This document shows positions 13,613 through 14,855 of a DNA stretch of 64,000 nucleotides, in pieces. Made by a program: the position numbers and the translations under genes. The notes below the pieces were generated by a model. That model was not told the DNA's origin. It saw only the letters and a list, made by a program, of their open reading frames with translations, and searched no databases. The stretch lies in the NCBI RefSeq assembly GCF_024298765.1, contig NZ_CP101212.1, one strand, 5' to 3'. This DNA is from Escherichia coli (GTDB lineage: Bacteria; Pseudomonadota; Gammaproteobacteria; Enterobacterales; Enterobacteriaceae). How positions within the stretch are numbered: position 1 is the stretch's first letter; each line of letters opens with the position of its first letter.

Positions 13613-14647
13613 TTAAAGCTGTGCTGCCAGAGTTGATAATAATTGTTCTGTCTGTTGCCATGATATGCATTCATCAGTAACAGACTGACCATACTCTAGC
13701 GGAAAACTATCGGATTGTTTTCCATCTTGTAAAAAGCTTTCCACCATAATGCCAGCTACATATCCTGGTATTTTTTTCCGATTATCTATAACTTGACGTG
13801 CAACGGAAATTTGCCGTTTAGCCACTTTACCGCTATTACCATGGCTACAATCAATTATCAGACGATGGTTAATGCCCTCATCATGCATTAATTTCACTGC
13901 CTTAGTTATATCAGACAAACCATAGTTAGGTTCTCTACCTCCACGTAATATTAGATGTCCATGTGGATTGCCATCGGTTAATAGTGTAGATATACTATTT
14001 GTTAAAGATGTCATATATACAATATGTTGTTCACGGGCTGCAATAATAGCGTCAATAGCTAAGTTAATATTTCCATCAGTACTGTTTTTAAATCCAACTG
14101 GACAATGTAAACCAGACGCAAGTTGACGATGCGTTTGTGATTCAGTGGTTCTGGCACCAATAGCACCCCAACATATTAAATCAGCAATATAGGGAGTAAG
14201 AAAAGGATCGAGGAATTCTGTAGCGGTTGCGACACGCATCGTTGTGATTGAAGACAAACACTGGCGAGCATATCGTATCCCTTTCTCAACATCATAACTT
14301 CCATTTAGATCAGGATCGTGCATTATTCCCTTCCAGCCTTTACGGGTTCGAGGTTTCTCAAAATAAGTGCGCATTACAATGTACATTTTCGATAAGTACT
14401 TATTCTGTAATACGAACAATCGCTTCGCATAATCAACTGCGGCCTGAACGTCATGGATTGAGCATGGACCAACAATCACAAGTAAGCGAGGATCTTTTCC
14501 CAGCAAAATATTCGCTATAATATCTCGTTGCAGAGAGATCCATGTTACGGTTTCTTCCGATACTGCGATTTCTTTATGAATCTCGCCCACAGTGGGTAAA
14601 CTGCCAAGCAACTTCCCGCGGTAGATTAATTTACTAGCTGACTGCAT
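13613..14647 (-). CDS. ssbL: Class I DAHP synthase (3-deoxy-7-phosphoheptulonate synthase, AroG/AroF/AroH-like); resembles the plasmid gene ssbL
   Basis: 344 aa collinear with E. coli AroG as recalled (IVGPCSIHD, YFEKPRT..GWKG, WGAIGARTTESQ.HR.LASGL, RGG.EPNY motifs); gene is visibly AT-rich versus the flanking iro genes; symbol assigned from memory of ColV plasmids. Confidence 0.85.
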   Translation of the reverse strand: MQSASKLIYRGKLLGSLPTVGEIHKEIAVSEETVTWISLQRDIIANILLGKDPRLLVIVGPCSIHDVQAAVDYAKRLFVLQNKYLSKMYIVMRTYFEKPRTRKGWKGIMHDPDLNGSYDVEKGIRYARQCLSSITTMRVATATEFLDPFLTPYIADLICWGAIGARTTESQTHRQLASGLHCPVGFKNSTDGNINLAIDAIIAAREQHIVYMTSLTNSISTLLTDGNPHGHLILRGGREPNYGLSDITKAVKLMHDEGINHRLIIDCSHGNSGKVAKRQISVARQVIDNRKKIPGYVAGIMVESFLQDGKQSDSFPLEYGQSVTDECISWQQTEQLLSTLAAQL

Positions 14648-14696
14648 CTTGTCTCCTAAAAGCGCTATTTCAGACCATCAGTTGCACACAGTAGAT

Positions 14697-14715
14697 GATA
14701 ATGATAATCATTTAC
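14697..14715. promoter_or_regulatory. Near-consensus Fur box upstream of the DAHP synthase gene
   Basis: gataatgataatcatttac matches GATAATGATAATCATTATC at 17 of 19 positions, 50-70 bp upstream of the start at 14647. Confidence 0.6.
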
Positions 14716-14855
14716 TGTATAATTGGCAATATATGGGGATTCATAGTCATTTCTGAGATAATATACGTTAGGCCTTCTCTCCCGTACGGAAATCACTTGT
14801 TTTCCGTAAATTACCTGAATCTTAATCCCTGAGCTGCGGCGGTAATGACTCCAAC

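Follow-up and report, generated by a model that had tools for sequence, protein, structure and literature searches.

A Fur-regulated DAHP synthase gene, ssbL, beside the salmochelin locus of an Escherichia coli IncF-type plasmid

The closest described counterparts of the gene discussed here are ORF 123 (pS88123) of the ColV-Ia plasmid of Escherichia coli S88, later named ssbL (PMC3438092; PMC6918656), and c1220 of E. coli CFT073, its chromosomal orthologue. ORF 123 was found to share 45-50% identity with the K-12 DAHP synthases, to be preceded by a Fur-box-like sequence, to respond to iron-poor LB, serum and urine with a 110-355-fold induction, and to occur only together with the salmochelin operon, the chromosomal copy lying 20-30 kb from iro (PMC3438092, 2012). 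According to Lemaitre 2014, as relayed by citing papers, ssbL acts through the shikimate pathway to raise the output of catecholate and phenolate siderophores, and it counts as an auxiliary virulence factor (PMC6918656, PMC4723317). c1220 is a member of CFT073's direct Fur regulon, with a Fur ChIP-seq summit at position 1172463, a fur-/wt expression ratio of 147-fold and no effect of RyhB (Banerjee et al. 2020, PMC7157518). The same gene had the highest fitness factor in a transposon screen of systemic infection, and a deletion mutant was outcompeted (PMC3855560). More distant relatives are the dahP-type genes, among them dahP itself, with which the piscibactin operon begins (PMC6083037).

The present analysis concerns a window of 64,000 nucleotides of E. 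coli DNA whose replicon is an IncF-type plasmid, as indicated by tra genes, RepFII and tsh-region matches. It carries the salmochelin locus at 3237-12747, with iroBCDE on the plus strand and iroN (10570-12747) on the minus strand, as assigned from the open reading frames and from the annotation of identical plasmid DNA. The minus-strand gene under study (13613-14647; 344 amino acids, ATG start) is separated by 865 bp from the end of iroN at 12747. A preliminary description of this DNA had taken it for a plasmid-borne DAHP synthase gene adjoining iroBCDEN, probably the ssbL gene of ColV plasmids and probably not new, and was right on each of these points. The encoded protein is identical to WP_001190234.1 of pS88 (pECOS88, NC_011747.1), where ssbL occupies 97964-98998 and likewise adjoins iroN; the two coding sequences differ by 2 synonymous nucleotides. 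No difference separates the window from pS88 over the 193 nt that precede the ATG, a stretch that includes promoter and Fur box, so that the promoter for which the 110-355-fold induction was reported is also that of the window. Many ColV-type IncF plasmids match the stretch 12700-14840 at 100% identity, and 358 PLSDB records cover at least 80% of the query 12700-15000. The window gene is ssbL, already published, and its identity, Fur box, iron induction and siderophore role are not new.

The nature of the protein is supported by several profile searches. SsbL matches Pfam family PF00793 (DAHP_synth_1) with an E-value of 7.6e-76 (255 bits for a cutoff of 25.5), NCBIfam TIGR00034 (aroFGH) with 420 bits for a curated cutoff of 173 and NF009395 with 437 bits for a cutoff of 343, and its top PDB matches are DAHP synthases of Neisseria and E. 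coli (E 1e-100 to 1e-87). In the alignment with AroG, the metal ligands C61, H268, E302 and D326 are kept as C62, H269, E303 and D325, and the phosphoenolpyruvate and phosphate ligands R92, K97, R165, K186 and R234 as R93, K98, R166, K187 and R235; these AroG ligands are those known from established structures of the enzyme, and PMC9529685 confirms part of the list. SsbL is a type I-alpha DAHP synthase (3-deoxy-7-phosphoheptulonate synthase), its catalysis being predicted from sequence and backed in the literature by genetic and metabolite evidence. The K-12 enzymes AroH, AroG and AroF, with which the preliminary description had proposed to compare it, are 49, 44 and 44% identical to SsbL, belong to the same fold family, have a similar length and share all catalytic and metal residues, but they are regulated by TrpR or TyrR whereas SsbL is regulated by Fur. 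SsbL is not an orthologue of AroH or AroG, because its scores of 442.1 bits against the AroH subfamily (NF009396) and 362 bits against the AroG equivalog (NF006723) fall below the respective cutoffs of 463 and 568.

At 4 nt from the ATG, the upstream region of ssbL shows a Shine-Dalgarno sequence, AGGAGA (14652-14657, minus strand), evident from the sequence itself and kept in the chromosomal copies of CFT073 and ATCC 25922. A predicted sigma-70 promoter (14701-14729, minus strand) combines a -35 element TTGCCA (14729-14724), a 17-nt spacer and a -10 element TATCAT (14706-14701), and would start transcription near 14694; with 10 of 12 positions it is the best-scoring promoter-like site of the scanned region, in which 10 such sites were found for 7.5 expected by chance. 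The Fur box whose 17 of 19 matches had been pointed out in the preliminary description is located at 14697-14715, 49 nt upstream of the ATG, and reads GATAATGATAATCATTTAC; it matches the consensus at 17 of 19 positions on the plus strand and at 16 of 19 in gene orientation, and a second, overlapping register at 14691-14709 reaches 14 of 19. By chance, the whole 64-kb window is expected to hold 0.01 matches to the 19-bp consensus at up to 3 mismatches; when the 300 nt upstream of ssbL were shuffled 300 times with their composition kept, no shuffle attained 17 of 19. The box takes in 9 nt of the spacer together with the entire predicted -10 (14701-14706), and because of this overlap we infer that Fur would occlude the ssbL promoter. 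Operators for TyrR and TrpR were absent from 14648-14840 at up to 3 and 6 mismatches, respectively. On the downstream side, a terminator scan returned a single weak candidate (13362-13344), about 250 nt past the ssbL stop codon and no better than chance. Upstream of the promoter, at the margin of the module that the chromosomal copies have in common with the plasmid, lies a perfect 8-bp inverted repeat, TACGGAAA-N8-TTTCCGTA (14785-14808), which is probably dispensable for regulation because the CFT073 and ATCC 25922 copies have one arm partly deleted.

Comparison with the chromosome reinforces the reading of the box. The plasmid and CFT073 promoters differ at 35 of the 130 positions before the ATG (27% divergence), and the stretch from -67 to -49, which corresponds to the Fur-box core, is free of differences and forms their longest invariant run, an outcome only moderately unlikely at such divergence. 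The c1220 promoter shares with plasmid ssbL the -10 element, the Fur-box core TAAATGATTATCATTATCA, the distance between box and ATG and the ribosome-binding site; it differs in the first base of the box, T instead of G, and in its -35 element, TTGTCA. In CFT073 the box was located at 1172459-1172477, and the published ChIP-seq summit falls inside it, these binding data concerning the chromosomal orthologue c1220 and not the plasmid copy. Induction by iron starvation, as suggested in the preliminary description, is thereby documented at two levels: more than 100-fold induction in pS88 (PMC3438092), and Fur binding together with derepression for c1220 (PMC7157518). The c1220 summit height of 76.7 is low compared with the 1000-5000 of classical Fur targets (PMC7157518). 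In Table S1 of that paper, c1220 combines one of the lowest summit heights with one of the largest derepressions (147-fold in RNA; 764 in the supplementary file 5 table).

Among 5426 complete E. coli genomes, ssbL is present in 627, at 455 plasmid and 188 chromosomal places. The chromosomal form c1220, located on the serX island of CFT073, encodes a protein of equal length and 94% amino acid identity to SsbL (about 90% at the DNA level), WP_001192278.1, which is also found in ATCC 25922; its neighbours in the chromosome are the microcin H47/M cluster and remnants of IS3 and ISL3. When the stretch 13450-14840 was used as a query, the chromosomal matches, at about 90% identity, spanned query positions 53-1360. 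The module common to plasmid and chromosome therefore corresponds to 13502-14809 (minus strand) and consists of the gene extended by 111 nt downstream and by 162 nt upstream, and its flanks differ between copies, being occupied by IS3, ISL3 and IS1 elements. The ssbL coding sequence has a GC content of 39.9% (GC3 29.3%) and its upstream region one of 38.9%, whereas iroB, C, D, E and N range from 50 to 58% (GC3 54-63%). The AT-richness of the gene and the acquisition separate from iro, both put forward in the preliminary description, are upheld: the composition differs, and a self-contained module of about 1.3 kb, set between IS remnants, recurs in chromosomes away from iro. A Morganellaceae homologue has a composition like that of ssbL (39.5% GC, GC3 27%, within a locus of 41% GC), which hints at a low-GC enterobacterial donor.

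The surroundings of ssbL in the window depart from those of pS88 further upstream of the gene. In pS88 and most ColV plasmids, the genes for a DUF6404 protein, yacAB and cvaABC lie upstream of ssbL; in the window their place is taken by a complete 768-bp IS1 (14841-15608, minus strand), recognized by its located terminal repeats and the Pfam IS1 InsA and InsB domains, whose insA and insB genes are directed towards ssbL. Identity to other ColV plasmids stops exactly at position 14840, the right-hand limit that the preliminary description gave, and IS1 starts at 14841. Between the end of the element and the ssbL ATG there are 193 nt, and 112 nt separate it from the -35 element; promoter and Fur box are untouched. 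Among the PLSDB matches listed, where a match spanning the ssbL-IS1 junction would rank first, there was none. Beyond IS1 the window also differs from pS88 in carrying a PemK/MazF-MazE toxin-antitoxin pair (15802-16393), a gene for a CPBP/Rce1-like intramembrane protease (16486-17139) and a Tn3-family transposase gene (17851-20880); a CPBP protease gene is also annotated beside mcmA in the chromosomal island. Further Fur-box-like matches occur on the iro side. Two overlapping 16 of 19 matches at 2771-2795, about 440 nt upstream of iroB, are probably the iroBCDE operator; a 15 of 19 match at 12841-12859 lies 94-112 nt upstream of iroN, and a 16 of 19 match at 565-583 has no obvious gene alongside. 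At the scale of whole loci, ssbL repeatedly adjoins microcin export genes, namely the chromosomal mchI-mchB-...-mchEF-mcmA region (siderophore-microcins H47/M, Fur-regulated; CFT073 1172527-1183397) and the ColV cvaABC-cvi locus, and the HlyD-family proteins of the chromosomal microcin and ColV loci bear adjacent accession numbers (WP_000489608/09/10). The repeated neighbourhood and these accessions suggest an ancestral microcin-ssbL-iro block.

Outside E. coli, the closest relatives of SsbL, at 70% identity, are encoded by Citrobacter amalonaticus and Morganellaceae, followed by those of Vibrio, Veronia, Psychromonas and Shimwellia at 50-59%, while AroH-type proteins stand at about 50%. SsbL and these relatives form a clade sister to AroH in a distance-based neighbour-joining tree, which carries no support values. 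The clade is marked by a proline at the position of AroG Q151 and by a residue other than serine at that of S180, a signature that SsbL fits. All 9 sampled members from outside E. coli lie beside NRPS or EntA/B/C/E-type (catecholate) siderophore genes; one of them (L018) displays the gene order dahP-araC-araC-receptor-MFS-NRPS. The AroH-type control, for its part, kept the housekeeping ppsR-aroH synteny. Fur-like boxes scoring 14-18 of 19 precede the gene at 8 of 8 promoters examined, two from E. coli and six from other genera, and six of them lie 39-74 nt from the ATG. These boxes were established by direct reading of the sequences and a scoring scan, a MAFFT alignment of the upstream regions of four lineages having misregistered the Citrobacter and Morganellaceae boxes. 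The dahP-type genes of the piscibactin cluster of Photobacterium damselae plasmid pPHDP70 and of Vibrio catecholate clusters share the Pro/non-Ser signature with SsbL, are found within siderophore clusters or at their head, and have Fur-like boxes upstream in the cases examined (P0008, P0018 and P0030). Their products are only 50-55% identical to SsbL, and the genes themselves usually belong physically to an NRPS operon or cluster. The ssbL gene, in contrast, stands alone as a monocistronic module, moved beside iro secondarily. A tRNA-like 3' end is located about 220 nt upstream of the C. amalonaticus ssbL homologue and its NRPS cluster (L007, 9700-9790), which suggests that both reside on a tRNA-associated genomic island.

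A further comparison concerns the site of feedback inhibition. In AroG and AroF, residues Q151 and S180 contact the main chain of the inhibitor, and feedback-resistant AroG variants include S180F, P150L, M147I, F209A and V221A (PMC9529685). A check of these residues, which the preliminary description had advised, shows replacements in SsbL: Q151 corresponds to P152, S180 to H181, P150 to T151, M147 to P148, F209 to V210 and S211 to M212. In an alignment of 121 sequences, the Q151 position is occupied by proline in 36 and by glutamine in 84, and the serine at S180 is kept in 85; the SsbL clade carries histidine or proline there. The AroG N-terminus contributes D6 and D7 to the inhibitor site. 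The N-terminus of SsbL is unrelated to that of AroG, and an IYRG motif is common to SsbL and its Citrobacter and Morganellaceae relatives. Because the residues that contact the inhibitor in AroF, AroG and AroH are replaced, SsbL is predicted to be feedback-insensitive and probably escapes the canonical control by Phe, Tyr and Trp. Extended to the whole clade (ssbL/c1220, Citrobacter, Morganellaceae and the Vibrio/Photobacterium dahP-type genes), this view would describe naturally feedback-insensitive enzymes that kept the barrel and lost the inhibitor contacts, with Fur as the sole gate, a proposal towards which we lean by a little. In a variant reading, the conserved IYRG N-terminus would bind a different effector. 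Searches of the literature for work on the allostery of SsbL or c1220, and for work on DAHP synthases belonging to vulnibactin or catecholate clusters, brought up no enzymology.

Taken with the published work, these data lead us to hold with great confidence that ssbL is best explained as a Fur-gated extra DAHP synthase gene that boosts the supply of siderophore precursors. SsbL would represent a fourth, horizontally acquired isozyme joining phosphoenolpyruvate and erythrose-4-phosphate at the entry step of the shikimate pathway. When iron is present, Fur-Fe2+ bound over the -10 element and half of the spacer would block RNA polymerase; upon iron starvation, Fur would depart and ssbL would rise more than 100-fold together with iroBCDEN, the adjoining salmochelin locus being the pathway that consumes the catechol derived from chorismate. 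The additional SsbL would then provide more chorismate for enterobactin and salmochelin, via 2,3-dihydroxybenzoate, and for yersiniabactin, via salicylate. This agrees with the chorismate boost envisaged in the preliminary description and attributed to ssbL by Lemaitre 2014, as cited in PMC6918656 and PMC4723317. The explanation builds on gene identity, on iron and Fur dependence, on Fur occupancy of the orthologous box and on fitness and virulence effects, each demonstrated in the literature or here.

Other accounts of the gene have to be weighed against this one. By the original annotation of CFT073, the gene would encode a standard Trp-sensitive isozyme of the AroH type with a housekeeping task in aromatic amino acid synthesis; among NCBIfam subfamilies AroH indeed scores best (442 bits), and among the K-12 paralogues it is the closest to SsbL (49% identity). 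The 'Trp-sensitive' label that the CFT073 tables give to c1220 was nevertheless rejected on account of the AroH score below the curated cutoff and of the branching of SsbL outside the AroH clade. Moreover, the AroH-conserved inhibitor-site residues M147, G150, Q151, S180 and S211 are P, T, P, H and M in SsbL, regulation is by Fur and not TrpR, no TrpR or TyrR box was found in the ssbL promoter, and true AroH keeps the ppsR-aroH synteny while the SsbL clade sits in siderophore clusters; a housekeeping role is accordingly rated as very improbable. The idea that the match to the Fur box results incidentally from AT-rich sequence, and that iron acts indirectly, could draw on the low GC content of the upstream region and on the modest c1220 ChIP summit, but a summit inside the box, the rarity of such matches in the window and in shuffled sequences, the invariance of the box within a diverged promoter and the recurrence of upstream Fur-like boxes among clade members of six other genera leave this account with almost negligible probability.

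The purpose of the extra flux can also be seen differently. The main selected sink might be catechol-modified microcins, or chorismate products in general (folate, quinones, antioxidant catechols), ssbL travelling on this view with microcin loci: it lies about 3 kb from the Fur-regulated microcin H47/M cluster in CFT073 and ATCC 25922 and between iroN and cvaABC in ColV plasmids, and catecholate synthesis has roles independent of iron uptake (PMC3855560). In the window, however, IS1 stands in place of the microcin genes and yet ssbL and its promoter are intact, and clade members outside E. coli are associated with NRPS genes for siderophores rather than with microcins. A microcin sink, which we regard as unlikely, would moreover leave the biochemical mechanism, more chorismate, unchanged, and it refines the explanation by precursor supply more than it rivals it. 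Alternatively, SsbL could make up for iron-dependent AroF, AroG and AroH activity lost during iron starvation, for instance by using another metal, instead of adding flux. Type I-alpha DAHP synthases are mononuclear metalloenzymes and ssbL is induced only at low iron; but SsbL and AroG have the same residues at all four metal-ligand positions, so that the sequence gives no sign of a different metal, and the siderophore-cluster context fits a dedicated precursor supply better, which makes compensation quite improbable.

In ColV-type plasmids from avian, neonatal-meningitis and urinary E. coli, the gene forms part of the conserved virulence region, and it illustrates how a pathogen adds precursor supply, beyond biosynthesis and uptake genes, to its iron-acquisition regulon, as already published. 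The present analysis adds a clade sister to AroH whose sampled members outside E. coli reside in siderophore clusters, the recurrence of Fur-like boxes at the promoters examined and the replacement of the inhibitor-contact residues. The predicted loss of feedback control across this clade would go beyond the published work on ssbL that was found. If true, feedback insensitivity would explain the fitness effect of ssbL in amino-acid-rich host fluids such as serum and urine, in which a fourth isozyme pays off once AroF, AroG and AroH are shut down by aromatic amino acids, and SsbL would constitute a natural deregulated DAHP synthase for the engineering of aromatic compounds.
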